Assembly (NCBI RefSeq): GCF_024502345.1
Contig: NZ_JALDNN010000001.1
DNA: 64,000 nt
Direction: 5' to 3' (one strand)
Origin: Escherichia coli
Lineage (GTDB): Bacteria > Pseudomonadota > Gammaproteobacteria > Enterobacterales > Enterobacteriaceae
Part shown: positions 1,557 through 51,950 of the stretch, piece after piece
How positions within the stretch are numbered: the first letter of the stretch is position 1
Layout of the letters: the number at the start of each line of letters is the position of its first letter
The notes under the pieces: generated by a model
What the model saw: the letters and a program-made list of their open reading frames with translations, nothing else
What the model was told of the DNA's origin: nothing
Database searches by the model: none
Position numbers and translations under genes: made by a program

Positions 1557-4447
<2,891 letters not shown>

Positions 4448-4703
4448 CGGATTTTATCCTGTTATCAGTAGGGTAGATGTAGTTGTTATCAGTCGACGTG
4501 ACGGAAAAATGCCGATGCTGAAACGGAATTAAGAAACCGGTTTCACAAAATCATGAATAGTTGTCACCAAATAAGCAAGAGAGTTAATTGTTCATTTTTT
4601 ATATTTGTGAAACCGGTCACCTGAATATTTTTCCCGCCAATTGCGCAAGGACAATCGGTAAACGGTGCAGTACACTGCGTTGATTGCGTGTAAAGGGATG
4701 AAA

Positions 4704-25699: not shown

Positions 25700-25792
25700 G
25701 GTGAGGTGGCCGAGAGGCTGAAGGCGCTCCCCTGCTAAGGGAGTATGCGGTCAAAAGCTGCATCCGGGGTTCGAATCCCCGCCTCACCGCCA
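25700..25792 (+). tRNA. serV: tRNA-Ser (anticodon GCU)
   Basis: 93-nt cloverleaf GGTGAGGTGGCCGAGAGG...CGCCTCACCGCCA with long variable arm and anticodon loop CCTGCTAAG. Confidence 0.9.
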
Positions 25793-25795
25793 TTT

Positions 25796-25872
25796 GCATC
25801 CGTAGCTCAGCTGGATAGAGTACTCGGCTACGAACCGAGCGGTCGGAGGTTCGAATCCTCCCGGATGCACCA
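25796..25872 (+). tRNA. argV: tRNA-Arg (anticodon ACG)
   Basis: 77-nt GCATCCGTAGCTCAGCTGGATAGAGTACTCGGCTACGAACCGAGCGGTCGGAGGTTCGAATCCTCCCGGATGCACCA. Confidence 0.9.
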
Positions 25873-26007
25873 TATTCTCCGTAACCTTCAGCGATGAAGG
25901 TATGGAAGAGGTGGCGGTACTAACCGCAGGCACCAGGGAGAATAACGTTGCTTTAGCAACGGCCCGAAGGGCGAGCCGCAAGGCGAGTAATCCTCCCGGA
26001 TGCACCA
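25873..26007 (+). repeat. Structured spacer element ending in a tRNA-Arg 3-prime-end mimic (copy 1)
   Basis: 135-nt unit starting TATTCTCCG with four short hairpins and ending GAGTAATCCTCCCGGATGCACCA, duplicating the 3-prime terminus of the upstream tRNA-Arg. Confidence 0.7.
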
Positions 26008-26071
26008 TCTCTTACTTGATACGGCTTTAGTAGCGGTATCAAAAAATCTGCAGTAAAGTAAGTTTCCCGAT

Positions 26072-26148
26072 GCATCCGTAGCTCAGCTGGATAGAGTACT
26101 CGGCTACGAACCGAGCGGTCGGAGGTTCGAATCCTCCCGGATGCACCA
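26072..26148 (+). tRNA. argY: tRNA-Arg (anticodon ACG)
   Basis: Identical 77-nt tRNA-Arg sequence, second copy. Confidence 0.9.
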
Positions 26149-26210
26149 TCTCTTACTTGATATGGCTTTAGTAGCGGTATCAATATCAGCAGTAAAATAA
26201 ATTTCCCGAT

Positions 26211-26287
26211 GCATCCGTAGCTCAGCTGGATAGAGTACTCGGCTACGAACCGAGCGGTCGGAGGTTCGAATCCTCCCGGATGCACCA
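26211..26287 (+). tRNA. argZ: tRNA-Arg (anticodon ACG)
   Basis: Identical 77-nt tRNA-Arg sequence, third copy. Confidence 0.9.
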
Positions 26288-26422
26288 TATTCTCCGAAAT
26301 CTTCAGCAATGAAGATATCGAAGAGGTAGCGGAATTAACCGCAGGCACCAGGGAGGATAACGTTGCGCCAGCAACGGCCCGAAGGGCGAGCCGCAAGGCG
26401 AGTAATCCTCCCGGATGCACCA
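26288..26422 (+). repeat. Structured spacer element ending in a tRNA-Arg 3-prime-end mimic (copy 2)
   Basis: Same 135-nt unit after argZ with a few substitutions. Confidence 0.7.
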
Positions 26423-26485
26423 TCTCTTACTTGATATGGCTTTAGTAGCGATATCAATATCAGCAGTAAAATAAATTTTCCCGAT

Positions 26486-26562
26486 GCATCCGTAGCTCAG
26501 CTGGATAGAGTACTCGGCTACGAACCGAGCGGTCGGAGGTTCGAATCCTCCCGGATGCACCA
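26486..26562 (+). tRNA. argQ: tRNA-Arg (anticodon ACG)
   Basis: Identical 77-nt tRNA-Arg sequence, fourth copy. Confidence 0.9.
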
Positions 26563-29471: not shown

Positions 29472-29544
29472 AAAAAGGCCACTCGTGAGTGGCCAAAATT
29501 TCATCTCTGAATTCAGGGATGATGATAACAAATGCGCGTCTTTC
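29472..29544 (-). ncRNA. micA: Hfq-dependent sRNA MicA (SraD)
   Basis: Reverse complement reads GAAAGACGCGCATTTGTTATCATCATCCCTGAATTCAGAGATGAAATTTTGGCCACTCACGAGTGGCCTTTTT, matching MicA as I recall it, with its terminator hairpin. Confidence 0.9.
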
Positions 29545-33666: not shown

Positions 33667-34002
33667 TTATATAATCGCCATCACTTTCCAGGCGAGCCCA
33701 TAGGCCAGCGCACTAAGCAGTGTTGGGATGATAATGCTGCGTGTTTTATAGAAACTGGCACCCAGTACCGCGAAGCCGACCAGCGTGGGCACGAAACGGC
33801 GTGTATCGTGCATCACTTCTGGTGCGGTAGAGACAACCAGCAGAGCGCATATCGAGGCGATGCCAATGGTGTCGAGCAAAATACCTACCGCGCCACGTTT
33901 GGTTGGGCGGGCATTACCCACACGCAGGCGCAGCGGCAAATAGCGGAAGCAATAATTCGCCGCGCCAACCAGTAACCCAAGCAGCAGAACCTCATAGCTC
34001 AT
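33667..34002 (-). CDS. ygaH: Branched-chain amino acid exporter small subunit YgaH (AzlD-like)
   Basis: 111-aa membrane ORF overlapping ygaZ. Confidence 0.8.
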
Positions 34003-34729
34003 CGGGCGCTCCTTGCCAGAATGCCTGGATTAACGCAGTGAGGCAGCCACAGACAATGCCTGCCAGAATGGCGACGGGAATAGAAAATAGCGTTACGCCT
34101 GCAAGGGCACCAACTAACGCTGCGGTAACGCAAAGAGATTGTTTGCGCTGGAAAGAGGCGAGCAGGAAACTCATAAAGAGTGCCGGAAGCATAAAACCTA
34201 ATGCTGCTTCAACGGCGGGATAACCTTGCAGCAAGCCGCTGCCGGAGAATGCCCCTATTACCGTACCAAATACCCACGATGACCATGAACTGAAGGCAAT
34301 GCCGATCATCCAGTTCTCGCTCCAGCGGCGATTATTGCGTACCAGTTTTGCGGTGGCGGCGGCAAAAACCTCATCCGTCAGGCCAAACGCCCATAGCGCG
34401 GTTTTCGATTTTTGCAGACGCTGAATAATACGGCTACGCAGTGACGGGCCATACAAAACATGGCGAACATCCATTGCCATGACGGTCAGTGCAGCAACCC
34501 ACAAACTACTCCCTGCTGCCAGCATCGCGGTAATGACGAACTGGCTCGCGCCTGCATAAATGATGCAGGAGAAAAAAACGCTTTCGAGAGGAGAGAATCC
34601 CAGACGGGTCGCATTCAGACCGAACGCAAAGGCCACCGGAATATAACTAATAACAATCGGTAAACTGTCTTTGCATCCTTCCATGAAGGTCGCCGAACCA
34701 GGAGCAGGCTGTGGAGTAGGGCTTTCCAT
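33992..34729 (-). CDS. ygaZ: Branched-chain amino acid exporter large subunit YgaZ (AzlC-like)
   Basis: 245-aa membrane ORF. Confidence 0.8.
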
Positions 34730-34852
34730 AGAGTGTACGCTTAACGATTGTTAATATTATAAATAGACTGAATGAATATCTTAACCTTATCAGACTGATG
34801 GGCTTCTTAACACCCTTATAAGTGTAAAGCCACGAAAACGGTTGCTGATTGC

Positions 34853-36037
34853 TTAATTTGCGGCTTCCTGACGATGAAAACCTCGCCACCAGACCAGTAA
34901 GTTAACCAGGGCAATCGTCGCGCCAGCCAGACAAACGCCAGCCCAACCGCCATGTTGCCAGGCTGAGGCTGAAATTAGCGAACCGGCGGCACCGCCAATA
35001 AAGTAGCTGGTCATGTAACCTGCGGTCAGGCGATTACGCGCATCAGGATGTATTCGATAAATTACCGTCTGGTTAGTGATATGCACGCCCTGTACGGTGA
35101 GGTCCAGCACCAGAATGCCGATAATCAACGCCAGTACGGAAGTGTGACCAAACCAGATTGCCAGCCATGAAAGTAACAGCAGAAGCAGACCGAATGTTGT
35201 GGTGTGGTGCGATTTGCCCTTGTCGGCAAAACCGCCCGCCGGACGAGCGCCCAACGCTCCGGCAGCTCCCGCAAGTCCAAACAGACCAATTACGCCATCG
35301 CTGTAGTTAAAAGGTGGAGCGGCAAGCAAAAAGGCCATCGAGGTCCAGAGAATGCTGAAGTTGGCAAAAGTCAGGCAGCCCAGCAATGCGCGGGTGCGCA
35401 GGATCTTATCGTTGATAAACATGCTGAAAACGGAACCCAACAACTGTGGGTAGTTGAGGTGGGTTTCTGATTTCATTTGTGGCAGACCACGCCATAATGC
35501 TAGCGCCATCAGAGCCATTAACACCGAGGCAACCCAAAAGACGGTGCGCCAGCCGCCGAGGTTTGCCAGTAACCCGGCAACGGTTCGTGCCAGCAATATC
35601 CCCAACAGCAGACCGCTCATAATGGTGCCAACCACTTTGCCGCATTTATCCGGTGAAGCCAGCGTCGCTGCCAGCGGAACCAGAATTTGTGCCACGACTG
35701 AGAATAAACCGGTTAATGCCGTACCGAGGATCATCATCGCCAGTGACTGACTGCTGGCAGTGATTAACATACCGCCCGCTGCCAGTAAGGTCATCGAGAC
35801 AATCAGGCGGCGGCGTTCAAACATATCACCGAGGGGAACAAGAAACAGTAGACCTGCGGCATAGCCCAACTGCGCGGCGGTAACAATAAAGCCCGCCGAA
35901 CTGGCGGAGAGGGAAAAGTTACGCGCAATAGTGTCGAGCAGCGGTTGGGCGTAATAGTTGCTGGCGACCGCCAGACCGGTGGCGATCGACATCAGCACGA
36001 TCAGCGCCGGGCTAAGCTCATGAGTGGGTTTAGTCAT
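34853..36037 (-). CDS. ygaY: MFS transporter YgaY (apparently intact)
   Basis: Uninterrupted 394-aa 12-TMS MFS ORF. Confidence 0.75.
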   Translation of the reverse strand: MTKPTHELSPALIVLMSIATGLAVASNYYAQPLLDTIARNFSLSASSAGFIVTAAQLGYAAGLLFLVPLGDMFERRRLIVSMTLLAAGGMLITASSQSLAMMILGTALTGLFSVVAQILVPLAATLASPDKCGKVVGTIMSGLLLGILLARTVAGLLANLGGWRTVFWVASVLMALMALALWRGLPQMKSETHLNYPQLLGSVFSMFINDKILRTRALLGCLTFANFSILWTSMAFLLAAPPFNYSDGVIGLFGLAGAAGALGARPAGGFADKGKSHHTTTFGLLLLLLSWLAIWFGHTSVLALIIGILVLDLTVQGVHITNQTVIYRIHPDARNRLTAGYMTSYFIGGAAGSLISASAWQHGGWAGVCLAGATIALVNLLVWWRGFHRQEAAN

Positions 36038-36129
36038 TATTTTTGTTTATCAGGTGATGATTAAGCTGGAAATCAATAATAGCGGATGTTTATGAATGGG
36101 GGCGAAAGATAGCTTGTTGAAATGTGCGG

Positions 36130-36225
36130 TGTGGTTTGTAGGCATGATAAGACGCGCCAGCGTCGCATCAGGCATTGTGTACAGAGCGGCGGATGCGGCG
36201 AAAACGCCTTATCCGCCCGAATAAA
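36130..36225. repeat. REP palindromic element
   Basis: TGTAGGCATGATAAGACGCGCCAGCGTCGCATCAGGCA...GGCGGATGCGGCGAAAACGCCTTATCCGCC between ygaY and proX. Confidence 0.7.
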
Positions 36226-36227
36226 AA

Positions 36228-37220
36228 TTACTTATGCGCTGCCAGCGCCTCATTCACCCAGCCATCGAACTGCTGCTGGTGGGCTTTGATCCAGCCATCA
36301 ACGTGGCCCTGAATATCGCCTTCTGAGGCTTTGCCGTCATGCATAATGGCGTTCTGGGCGTTAATATCTGCCACTGGCAACTGCATAATGGCAAACAGTT
36401 TCGCTGCTGCCGGGTTTTTCTCGGCCCAGGCTTTATTGGCAACGATATGCATGGTGCTGACCGGGAAGCCGTAATTCGCGCCATTCGGCAGTTTGGTATC
36501 GGCATTTTTATCGCCCGGCAGTGCAGAGAACGGCACCTGCAACCAGACCACATCTTTCCCTGGCTTCAGCTCATTACTCACCCAGTACGGCGTCCAGGTG
36601 TAGTAAAACACCGGTTTGCCCTCTTTGTAGCGACTGATGGTGTCAGCCATCATCGCTGCGTAGTTCCCCTGATTATGCGTCACGGTGTTGGTCAGTTCAT
36701 ACGCAGCAAGCTGGTGGTTGATCGCACCTTCGCAGCCCCAGCCTGGGTTACAACCGGTTAAATCCGCTTTGCCATCACCGTTGGTATCGAACAGTTTGGC
36801 GATCTTCGGATCTTTCAGTTGTGCGATGTTGGTGATTTTGTACTGGTCGGCGGTTTTCTTATCGATCAGGTAACCCTGTGCCGCGCCGTTAACAAATACT
36901 CCTTCACGATAAAATTTCTTATCGCCACCGGCAGCTTCGTACATGTTGTCATGCAGTGGCGTCCAGTTCACGGCGGTGAAGGTTGCATCGCCGGAAGCAA
37001 GCGAGGTGTAGCCAACGTTGTAATCTACTTCGCTGGGTTTGTTGACGGTATAGCCTAATTTCTCCAGCGCACGGCTGACCAGCAGCGTCTGGAAGGTTTC
37101 TTCGGTGATGGTGCTTTGAACTGGATTAACAGTAATGCCTTTGCCCGGCAGATCGGCAGCAAAAGTTTGTGTAGAGATAAGCGTGGCAAACGCTGTCGCA
37201 AAAAGTACGCTATGTCGCAT
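36228..37220 (-). CDS. proX: Glycine betaine/proline ABC transporter periplasmic binding protein ProX
   Basis: ORF 36228-37268; start set at [21 protein letters not shown] (signal peptide); 330 aa. Confidence 0.9.
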
Positions 37221-40860: not shown

Positions 40861-41281
40861 TTAAAGTGCACAGGAGACGCAGCCTTCAATTTCAGTGCCT
40901 TACAGCGCCATCTGACGCAGGCGAATGTAATAGAGCGTTTTGATACCTTTGCGCCAGGCGTAAATCTGCGCTTTGTTGATATCGCGAGTGGTGGCGGTAT
41001 CGGGGAAAAACAGCGTCAGCGACAAACCCTGATCGACATGGCGAGTCGCTTCCGCGTAGGTGTCGATGATCTTTTCTGCGCCGATTTCGTAAGCATCCTG
41101 ATACAGCGCCAGATTTTCGTTAGTCATAAACGGGGCAGGGTAGTAAACGCGTCCTGTTTTGCCCTCTTTGCGTATCTCTACTTTCGCCACAATCGGATGA
41201 ATACTCGACGTAGCATGTGATGTAGCCCCCTGAAACACCGGACAGTAGCTGTATCTCCAGATAAGAGATAGGCTTGAATAT

Positions 41282-41677
41282 ATGTCTAACACTAACGCCA
41301 ATTTTGAGATGACCGGGATCCTGTTAGGGCAAGAAGTCCGTAAACGTAAAACTCCTCAGGAGAAGATCGCCATTATCCAGCAGACGATGGAGCCGGGTAT
41401 GAATGTCTCCCATGTCGCCCGCCTGCATGGTATCCAGCCCAGCCTGCTGTTTAAGTGGAAGAAGCAATATCAGGAAGGCAGCCTCACCGCCGTTGCGGCT
41501 GGAGAGGAAGTCGTTCCTGCTTCTGAGCTTACTGCTGCTCTGAAGCAGGTCCGGGAGCTTCAGCGCCTTCTGGGCAAGAAAACGATGGAAGTTGAGATCC
41601 TGAAAGAAGCCGTGGAGTACGGTCAGTCGCGAAAATGGATAGCGCACGCGCCCTTGTTGCCAAAGGACGGGGAATAG
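41282..41677 (+). CDS. IS2-group OrfA (InsC-like HTH protein)
   Basis: 131-aa ORF sharing long blocks with IS2 InsC as I recall it ([65 protein letters not shown]). Confidence 0.85.
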
Positions 41678-42516
41678 CCATGGTCAGCCGGACCATGGGC
41701 GTGTCGCGTGCGCAACTGTCACTGCGGATTAACCGTTCTGCCGACTGGCAGGACAGGCGCTGTAACCGGCGTAATGAAGAAGCAGACGCAGAAATACTGT
41801 CGGCTATCCTCAACATTATCAGCGATATGCCGAGTTATGGTTATCGACGCGTGTGGGGCATCCTGCGCAAGCAACGTCGCACAGAGGGACAGCCACCTGT
41901 GAATGCCAAACGGCTTTACAGGATAATGAGCGAGCATAACCTGTTGTTGTTGCATCACAAACCAGAGCGACCGAAGCGTGAACATAAGGGCAAGATAGCG
42001 GTGGCAGAAAGCGATATGCGCTGGTGTTCAGATGGCTTCGAGTTCGGCTGCGACAACGGCGAAAAACTGCGGGTAACGTTCGCGCTGGACTGCTGCGACC
42101 GTGAGGCCATAGACTGGGCAGCAAGCACGGGAGGCTATGACAGTTCGACCGTGCAGGATGTGATGCTGAGGTCGGTGGAAAAGCGCTTCGGCGACAGGTT
42201 GCCCGACACAGCGGTGCAGTGGCTGACGGATAACGGTTCAGCGTATACCGCGTATGAAACGCGGAGGTTCGCGAGAGAGCTGAATCTGGAGCCCTGCACA
42301 ACAGCGGTGAGCAGCCCGCAGAGTAATGGCATGGCCGAACGGTTCGTGAAAACGATGAAAGAAGACTATATCGCGTTCATGCCAAAACCGGATGTGAGAA
42401 CAGCACTGCGAAACCTTGCAGTAGCGTTCACGCATTACAATGAAAACCACCCGCACAGCGCGCTGGGATATCACTCCCCGAGGGAATACCGGCGGCAGCG
42501 GACATCGTTAACTTAA
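41635..42516 (+). CDS. IS2-group OrfB transposase (DDE; InsD-like)
   Basis: 293-aa ORF in the -1 frame overlapping orfA; blocks [48 protein letters not shown] match IS2 InsD as I recall it. Confidence 0.85.
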
Positions 42517-44329
42517 GATACAAAAGCTGTTCGGAGATGGAGGGTCAAGATCATACTCGACGTAGCATGGTTGATATAAGAGATAGAACCGGTTGGCGGC
42601 ACCGCCTGAAGATTCTGGTTGTAAATGCCGTAGCGCATCACGTCGTCGCGCAGTTGCGCCCACATCTCACGGGTAGGTAACGTAATACCGCTGCGGGCAA
42701 ACAGTTCGCCAACTTTCGCCGTTTTCGGCTGCCAGTTACCTTGCAGATATTGGCTAAAATATTCACCACTGGCATAACGTGACTGTTTGAACCCGGCGAA
42801 GGTTTCACCGCGTTCGCGCGCCAGCAACATCGAGGTACGCAGTGCGTGCCAGGTGATGGCATAGAAATAGAGATTGGTGAAATCCAGTGCTTCCGGCGAA
42901 CCATAAGCGATGCCTTCTCGCGCCAGATAGCCGTGTAAATTCATCTGCCCCAGTCCGATGGCGTGTGAGGCGGCATTTCCGGCTTCGATGGACGGCACGC
43001 TGCGGATATGACTCATATCTGACACCGCCGTTAAACCGCGCACGGCAGTCTCTACCGTGCGGGCAAAATCGGGGGAATCCATGGTGTGCGCAATATTCAA
43101 CGAACCTAAATTGCAGGAAATATCATGGCCTGTACGGGCATAGTCGAGATTCTCGTCATACTCTGAGGCGCTGTTAACCTGCAAAATTTCTGAGCAGAGA
43201 TTACTCATATTTATGCGCCCGGCGATAGGGTTAGCACGGTTTACCGTGTCTTCATACATGATGTAGGGATAGCCGGACTCAAACTGGATTTCTGCCAGTC
43301 GCTGGAAGAAATCACGGGCGTTGAGGTATTTTTTGCGAATGCGTTCATCGGCAACCAGTTCGTCATAGTGTTGGCTGATGGCCACATCGGCAAACGGCTT
43401 GCCATAAACTCGCTCTACGTCATAAGGCGAAAACAGCGCCATCTGCGCATTCTCTTTTGCCAGATGGAAAGTGATATCCGGGATCACCACGCCCAGCGAC
43501 AGTGTTTTAATGCGGATTTTCTCGTCGGCATTTTCCCGTTTCGTATCGAGAAAACGCAGAATATCGGGATGATGGGCATGTAAATAGACTGCACCAGCCC
43601 CCTGACGAGCGCCGAGCTGGTTGGCATAGGAAAATGCGTCTTCCAGCATTTTCATCACCGGAATCACGCCAGAAGATTGATTTTCAATACGTTTAATTGG
43701 CGCGCCCGCTTCCCGCAGATTCGACAGCAAAAATGCCACGCCGCCGCCGCGTTTCGACAGTTGCAGTGCGGAATTTACCGCCCGGCCAATCGACTCCATA
43801 TTGTCTTCAATACGCAGCAAAAAACAGGAAACCAGTTCGCCGCGCTGCTGCTTACCACAGTTGAGGAATGTCGGTGTTGCAGGCTGAAAGCGTCCTGACA
43901 GCATCTCATCGGTCAGTTGCGTCGCCAGTGTTTCATCGCCTTGTGCCAGCGTTAGCGCCACCATCGTGACTCGATCGGCAAAATCTTCCAGATAACGCTT
44001 ACCGTCGAATGTCTTCAACGTATAGCTGGTGTAAAACTTCCATGCTCCGAGGAATGTCTGAAAACGAAAACCGCTGGCGTGTGCGTGGGCAAACAGCGTA
44101 ATGACAAAATCGCGAGAGTAGCGGTTGAGGACGTTTTCATCATAGTAACCTTCGTTGACCAGCCAGTTCAGGCGCTGCTGCTGGCTACTGAAGGTCACAC
44201 TGTTCGGACGCACATGTGTCGCCATAAAGGCGTCAACGGCCTGGCGATCTTTATCGAACTGAATGCGACCTGCGCTATCGTAAAGGTTAAGCATCGCATT
44301 CAGCGCGTGGTAATCCATCGTTTCCTGCG

Positions 44330-44740
44330 TCAGGCGTTCTGCGGTTGTCGTTGCCAAAATTCGGTTACTCCTTTACGAACGTTTTCGATATCGCTTTGCG
44401 TACCCATGAGTTCAAAGCGGTACAGCCACGGCACGCCGCATTTCCGGGCTATCACATCTCCGGCGCGGCCATACGCCTCACCAAAGTTGCGATTACCCGA
44501 AGCAATAACGCCGCGAAGCAACGCCCGGTTGTGCTCGTCGTTTAAAAAGCGAATTACCTGTCGTGGCACCGCGCCAGCCGTACCGCCGCCGCCGTAAGAG
44601 GGCACGATCAGGATGTAAGGCTCGTCTACCTGAATCCGTTCCCGCTCATTGAGCGGGATGCGCACCGCGGGCAGACCTAAACGTTCGATAAAACGCTGCG
44701 TGTTTTCGGAGCTGCTGGAGAAGTAGACGAGCTGGCTCAT
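44330..44740 (-). CDS. nrdI: Flavodoxin-like RNR accessory protein NrdI
   Basis: 136-aa [28 protein letters not shown]... Confidence 0.9.
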
Positions 44741-51539: not shown

Positions 51540-51950
51540 TGCCGGAGAGCGGCTCCGCCTTATCCGGCCGACATAGATTTATTCCTGTTCACGTACAGAT
51601 TGTCGGATGCGGCGTAAACGCCTTATCCGACCTGGATCCCCGTAGGCCGGACAAGACGCGCAGCGTCGCCTCCGGCATGGGTGCGCCGATTGTCGGATGC
51701 GGCGCAAACGCCTTATCCGACCTACATTTCCGTAGGCCGGACAAGACGCGTAAGCGTCGCCTCCGGCATGGTGCGCCGAATGTCGGATGCGGCGTTAACG
51801 CCTTATCCAACCTACACTCTCGTAGGCCGGACAAGACGCGCAGCGTCGCCTCCGGCATGGTGCGCCGATTGTCGGATGCGGCGTTAACGCCTTATCCGAC
51901 CTACACTCTCGTAGGCCGGACAAGACGCGCAGCGTCGCCTCCGGCATGGG
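51540..51950. repeat. REP/BIME tandem cluster (about 5 units) between gabT and gabP
   Basis: Repeated TGTCGGATGCGGCG(T/C)AAACGCCTTATCCGACCTAC...CGTAGGCCGGACAAGACGCGCAGCGTCGCCTCCGGCATGG units. Confidence 0.8.

Follow-up and report, generated by a model that had tools for sequence, protein, structure and literature searches.

An intact ygaY gene in Escherichia coli, the exceptional K-12 pseudogene and a private Arg132-to-Cys change

Among the described relatives of the product of ygaY is YnfM, the only characterised member of its transporter family. According to PMC5417439, TCDB places YgaY (UniProt P76628) at 2.A.1.36.3, in the family named Acriflavin-sensitivity (YnfM), and enters its function as 'Unknown'; YnfM stands in the same family as 2.A.1.36.1. 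YnfM was demonstrated to export glutarate from E. coli BL21 in a CCCP-sensitive manner, and in Corynebacterium it is employed for the export of dicarboxylates (PMC12622518). In K-12, ygaY is b2681 (NC_000913.3, 2808316..2809493, 1178 bp) and is flagged as a pseudogene; the same locus in a second MG1655 assembly carries the PGAP label 'MFS transporter, frameshifted', and P76628 is a conceptually repaired translation. That the gene is intact elsewhere and a pseudogene in K-12 is thus already known and is contained in the reference annotations. Experimental work has used the locus accordingly. For example, the ygaY deletion serves as a pseudogene (neutral) control in Price et al., metabolic engineering papers use ygaY as a neutral integration site, and Rashid et al. 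(bioRxiv 10.1101/2023.07.10.548347) write of 'the crypticity of ygaY'.

Here, we analysed ygaY in a stretch of 64,000 nucleotides from an E. coli genome (assembly GCF_024502345.1, contig NZ_JALDNN010000001.1), which is called the window below. The gene and its immediate surroundings are as follows.

36228..37220, minus strand: proX, the last gene of proVWX, upstream of ygaY (993 nt; one amino acid differs from K-12)
36141..36218, minus strand: REP/BIME-type repeat in the 190-bp spacer between proX and ygaY (Rfam naRNA4, 73.5 bits, gathering score 59.5)
34853..36037, minus strand: ygaY CDS, MFS transporter (TCDB 2.A.1.36.3, YnfM family), from the ORF listing, Pfam, the match to annotated CDSs and the structural model
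33992..34729, minus strand: ygaZ, valine exporter subunit, downstream of ygaY, from the ORF listing and the comparison with K-12
33667..34002, minus strand: ygaH, after ygaZ, from the ORF listing

The first-pass annotation of this DNA had described an uninterrupted frame of 394 amino acids near ygaZH and emrAB, and both parts of that description hold. In the ORF listing as well as in the raw sequence, ygaY is a single open reading frame of 394 codons with an ATG start and without any in-frame stop. On the minus strand the genes run in the order nrdF, proV, proW, proX, ygaY, ygaZ, ygaH, emrR, emrA and emrB, with luxS further on, and the order around ygaY matches that of K-12 and other E. coli strains. 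An internal frameshift masked in the ORF listing can be excluded, as the gene is collinear across all 1185 nt with the intact CDSs annotated in other strains; PGAP gives an intact 'MFS transporter' CDS of the same 1185 bp in FDAARGOS_943, W, O157:H7 PV15-279 and 2021CK-00607. The window gene also belongs to the Escherichia ygaY orthologue group by position (between proX and ygaZ), by identity (90-99.9% at the nucleotide level, as the best match in each of 5418 genomes) and by frame (free of stops and indels, with positions 35777-35783 retained). It is a real gene and not a chance ORF.

Compared with K-12, the window gene differs by a single indel, which is the lesion of the pseudogene.

35777..35783, minus strand: 7 bp, GGCAGCG (CGCTGCC on the plus strand), present in the window and absent from K-12 (gene nt 255-261, codons 85-87)

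The loss of these 7 bp shifts the K-12 frame at codon 85 and brings a stop at codon 88. In the intact gene, GGCAGCG is flanked on both sides by GGC, a microhomology that makes the deletion consistent with an origin by slippage. Besides the indel, the two alleles are separated by 52 substitutions (95% nucleotide identity), and when the K-12 frame is repaired, the proteins differ outside the deleted codons only by T5N, C132R and N209S (window to K-12). The K-12 gene is orthologous, with the same proX-ygaY-ygaZ synteny; it has lost the 7 bp and has Arg132, whereas the window gene has kept them and has Cys132. The earlier statement that ygaY is disrupted in K-12 was therefore right: the pairwise alignment proposed as its check identified the deletion, in agreement with the pseudogene flag and the 'frameshifted' label, and the possibility that the K-12 gene is actually intact is excluded.

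The intact allele is the rule in the species. Among 5426 complete E. coli genomes, ygaY was matched in 5418 (at least 80% of the gene in 5413) and unmatched in 8. When 40 rows evenly spaced down the ranking were inspected, 35 were matches of 1185 bp, one was of 1182 bp, three were of the K-12 type (1178 bp) and one was a truncated remnant. Using a 54-nt probe for the deletion junction at E<=1e-15, a threshold needed because the GGC microhomology lets words of 30-36 nt match intact alleles, we found the K-12 deletion in exactly 353 of the 5426 genomes, all at 100% identity. The 60 deletion-bearing genomes that were listed, out of the 353, all belong to K-12 or to laboratory derivatives; these matches included MG1655, C600, DH5alpha, DH1, J53, NCM3722, HMS174, RR1 and evolved MG1655 lines. 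A near-full-length ygaY without the K-12 lesion is accordingly present in about 5060 of the 5426 complete genomes (93%). An assembly labelled E. fergusonii also has an intact ygaY CDS in the same synteny as E. coli.

The intact alleles resemble that of the window closely. The proteins WP_060616190.1 (FDAARGOS_943), WP_000165714.1 (O157:H7) and WP_000165722.1 (W) share with it the length of 394 aa, the start, the stop and the neighbouring genes, and intact alleles of other E. coli are 94.6-99.9% identical to it in nucleotide sequence. The nearest, FDAARGOS_943, is one base away (Arg132; 99.9% identity), and the other intact alleles differ from the window protein by 3-7 residues. In FDAARGOS_943, the proX-ygaY spacer is interrupted by an IS3 element, which the window lacks. 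A separate loss of ygaY was seen in PCP06021, an E. coli isolate from Galapagos seawater, in which a deletion (4001-4463 of its locus) has taken out ygaZ entirely, together with the remainder of ygaY and the first part of ygaH, so that the first 159 bp of ygaY are fused to ygaH; the ygaH CDS measures 312 nt in this strain and 336 nt in others.

Since every lineage sampled (O157:H7, W, a urinary isolate, the assembly labelled E. fergusonii) has the intact gene and the deletion occurs in only 353 of the 5426 genomes, those listed being K-12 or laboratory derivatives, the view that intact ygaY is ancestral and K-12 the exception is supported. The first-pass annotation had proposed that this strain may retain the ancestral functional transporter. 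The word ancestral stands. The suggestion that this strain is special does not, as about 93% of complete genomes are alike in this respect. The word functional is supported at the level of the species by selection, and it is weakened in this strain by the private Cys132 that is considered below.

For the estimation of selection, dN/dS was calculated by the Nei-Gojobori method with six intact ygaY alleles and the K-12 allele with its gap masked. In every informative pair, the repaired K-12 allele included, dN/dS was 0.008-0.068, with dS reaching up to 0.31 (0.18 between the window and K-12); for the window allele compared with others, dN/dS was 0.02-0.07. This shows that the YgaY protein is under strong purifying selection across E. 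coli, and the low ratio therefore supports 'ancestral and functional' for the species. Non-synonymous changes are not in excess in the K-12 allele, so that its inactivation is recent. The divergence between the window and K-12 is unevenly distributed. Most of it falls in some 2.2 kb (approximately 34956-37150; 2-6% per 200 bp), made up of two-thirds of proX, at its 3' end, and the greater part of ygaY; in the final ~100 bp of ygaY it drops abruptly to 0, and across ygaZ, ygaH, emrR and emrA it is 0-1%. Such a pattern suggests a recombination mosaic that has a breakpoint within ygaY.

The family assignment was examined by profile, structure and motif. YgaY matched Pfam MFS_1 (PF07690) with E=7.3e-39 and 134.1 bits against a gathering cut-off of 33.4, which places it in that family, and Sugar_tr and MFS_4 gave weaker matches. 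The AlphaFold2 model, made with 112 diverse homologues, is all-helical (mean pLDDT 95.3, pTM 0.93), and Foldseek aligned it over 380-394 columns with 12-helix MFS structures, namely SotB (6KKK), MdfA (6EUQ/4ZP0), NorA (8TTF) and YajR (3WDO), at TM-scores of 0.72-0.83. Taken with the model, these matches support twelve helices in two six-helix bundles. The earlier statement of 12 transmembrane segments is thus borne out by full-length superposition onto 12-TM structures at a TM-score of about 0.8, and the count rests on this superposition, as DSSP fuses TM11 and TM12 (331-393) and a crude Kyte-Doolittle scan, which missed the Gly-rich TM8 and TM11, gave 10 segments. In addition, motif A of the superfamily, which resembles G-x-x-x-D-R/K-x-G-R-R/K, is present.

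35804..35836, minus strand: MFS motif A in the TM2-TM3 cytoplasmic loop, P68-L-G70-D71-M-F-E-R75-R76-R77-L, recognised by its conservation in homologues

Among the homologues, P68 of this motif is invariant, G70 is conserved in 92% and D71 in 98-99%, and R75 and R76 are mostly R or K; outside it, R151 (TM5), D272 and R336 are nearly invariant.

Within the superfamily, YgaY falls in the YnfM family. YgaY is 26% identical to K-12 YnfM over 376 aa (BLASTP, E=7e-21), in line with its place in 2.A.1.36, and both are 12-TM MFS proteins. YnfM is nevertheless a distant paralogue, and its gene adjoins the LysR-type regulator gene ynfL, unlike ygaY. None of the NCBIfam equivalog or subfamily models reached its cut-off with YgaY, and so no name narrower than 'MFS transporter' is justified.

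Membership of the DHA1 (12-spanner drug:H+ antiporter) group was considered and is not supported by profile or motif. The antiporter motif C is G-x-x-x-G-P-x-x-G-G in TM5. In YgaY, TM5 reads S141-G-LLL-G146-ILLAR151-TVA-G155 and has no Gly-Pro, and the best DHA1-type profiles (for example TIGR00710 Bcr/CflA, NF008314, EmrD and the SotB-type PRK03545) scored 52-62 bits against cut-offs of 200-400. The DHA1 drug:H+ antiporters SotB, MdfA and NorA are the top structural matches (TM-score 0.79-0.83), a result that shows resemblance and not membership; they are like YgaY in fold, and motif A is found in YgaY, but sequence identity is just 15-18% and the motif C signature is missing. When solved structures were searched by sequence, only weak matches were obtained (GlcP at 1e-7, EmrD and Qdr2). 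Taken together, we consider it very probable that ygaY of the window is an ordinary wild-type allele of an Escherichia core gene for a 12-helix secondary transporter of the YnfM family in the MFS, with K-12 as the exceptional case.

As to what the protein does, YgaY is likely a proton-coupled exporter. Its mechanism would be the MFS rocker-switch, with the proton gradient as driving force, and the exported substrate would most probably be a small organic metabolite, which may be an anion. This reading draws on three points: YnfM, the characterised family-mate, is a proton-dependent glutarate/dicarboxylate exporter, the nearest structures are those of DHA1 H+ antiporters, and Arg151 in TM5 is membrane-embedded and nearly invariant. 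Against a reading of the antiporter type, the canonical motif C is missing (G142-LLL-G146-ILLAR in TM5). Genomic context gives no functional hint, because the neighbourhoods of the homologues P0019, P0020 and P0021 (49-57% identity) are unrelated and no partner genes are shared among them.

An intact frame is no guarantee of a working protein, and the allele of the window, with a private replacement of Arg132 by Cys, slightly weakens the word 'functional'.

35642..35644, minus strand: codon 132, TGC (Cys) in the window and CGC (Arg) in other alleles (gene nt 394, C to T, window position 35644)

The first alternative to an ordinary working allele is therefore that the frame is intact and the protein impaired, Cys132 being a cryptic missense change that abolishes or alters function; we regard this as rather unlikely. 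Several observations speak for it. First, nt 394 is the sole difference from the nearest allele, that of FDAARGOS_943 (no synonymous and one non-synonymous change), and Arg132 is found in 6/6 other alleles compared, including those of K-12, O157, W, 2021CK-00607 and the assembly labelled E. fergusonii. Second, with a 55-nt probe centred on the SNP, the Cys132 codon was found in none of the complete E. coli genomes and the Arg132 codon of the control probe in 3073; any 28-nt seed of these probes must span the SNP, and the absence covers those genomes where such a probe was able to detect the allele. The exact Cys132 protein (WP_256632729.1/MCQ7033795.1) is recorded from one contig. Third, in 112 homologues of 33-55% identity, column 132 holds Arg in 86 (77% of these diverse sequences), Gln in 9, Ser in 6, Thr in 3, Lys in 3, Ala in 2, Gly in 1, Ile in 1 and Cys in 0, and the residue adjoins G133 and G137, each of which is more than 90% conserved. 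In the AlphaFold2 model, residue 132 begins the helix 129-161 (TM5), and from the MFS topology with motif A in loop 2-3 we infer that it lies on the cytoplasmic side.

A comparison with sugar porters may point in the same direction. In these proteins, a 'P-x-x-x-R-G' stretch after TM4 holds the Arg of a cytoplasmic salt-bridge network, and loss of this Arg is deleterious. The 'P-x-x-R-G-x-x-x-G' stretch after TM4 of YgaY may correspond to it, and in a phmmer alignment to GlcP (4LDS), residue 132 falls one residue off the RG of 'PTEYRGSLG'. However, that is the sole alignment obtained, a weak match with an offset of one residue, so that the equivalence is a tentative one. Column 132 moreover tolerates non-basic residues (Gln, Ser, Thr, Ala, Gly and Ile in about 20% of the homologues), and the T at nt 394 might be a sequencing or assembly error. 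The change is a non-conservative one at a mostly, though not strictly, conserved basic site. It may have no effect, it may make the allele hypomorphic, or it may be an error of sequencing.

A more specific scheme joins the proposed transport activity to the surroundings of the gene and to the private change. In it, YgaY would export an organic anion, or a metabolite related to osmotic stress, by proton coupling and would be expressed on osmotic shock via read-through from proVWX, and Cys132 would be a natural hypomorph or a variant with altered gating, at the cytoplasmic junction of TM4 and TM5; as a whole, we hold this scheme to be improbable.

The remaining alternative concerns expression. 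It states that the ORF is intact and yet silent, having no promoter or ribosome-binding site of its own and lying in H-NS/StpA-bound chromatin downstream of proVWX, which we consider very unlikely. On the same reading ygaY would matter mainly as DNA, as the anchor of a repressive DRE-ygaY bridge, and this part is just as hard to credit. If true, it would account for the loss of coding capacity in K-12 at no cost. In its favour, the consensus scan found no sigma-70 promoter on the minus strand in the 190 bp upstream of ygaY (36038-36227), and inspection of the sequence gave no obvious Shine-Dalgarno between the REP-type repeat and the ATG; the scan is a crude consensus search, which weak or non-sigma-70 promoters escape. 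The same scan placed a promoter-like site of ygaZ at 34784..34756. In K-12, Rashid et al. (bioRxiv 10.1101/2023.07.10.548347) reported low ygaY transcripts that rose after osmotic shock, above all without StpA (11-fold in an stpA deletion mutant), a rise which they explain by proVWX being no longer insulated from the genes beside it, together with an H-NS-mediated DRE-ygaY bridge, and the ygaY locus of K-12 may be bound by H-NS. The use of ygaY deletion mutants as neutral controls fits as well, but neutrality was observed in K-12, whose copy of the gene is non-functional in any case. Against a silent ORF, a dN/dS of 0.01-0.07 at dS up to 0.3 reveals long-term selection on the protein, which is not expected of a frame that is never expressed.

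Some other features of the window were recorded in the course of this work. About 5 kb from ygaY, nrdE, encoding the class Ib ribonucleotide reductase alpha subunit, is split by an IS3-family element of about 1.34 kb (approximately 41216-42554).

42513-44357 and 40900-41301, minus strand: the two nrdE fragments, split by the IS
41282-41677, plus strand: orfA of the IS3-family element, inside nrdE
41635-42516, plus strand: orfB of the same element, inside nrdE

When the IS with flanks of about 115-145 bp was searched, this insertion was found in no complete E. coli genome, the best coverage of 84% representing the IS alone. The insertion is therefore apparently particular to this strain, in which it probably inactivates nrdHIEF. 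Rfam naRNA4 (CssrE) matched the window again at 51645-51901 on the minus strand, in three tandem copies of the REP/BIME type about 15 kb from the copy in the proX-ygaY spacer. A cluster of five tRNA genes, four of them with identical scores, lies at 25700-26559 on the plus strand, a position that fits serV-argVYZQ. The MicA sRNA adjoins luxS at 29473-29544 on the minus strand. Both the tRNA cluster and MicA are ordinary E. coli features.

In conclusion, ygaY of this strain follows the norm of the species, and the replacement of Arg132 by Cys is the only point that is specific to it. K-12 is a natural ygaY null, and annotation and phenotype data based on K-12 are uninformative on the function of YgaY. 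The selection seen across the species (dN/dS ~0.03) means that the YgaY protein matters in natural E. coli.
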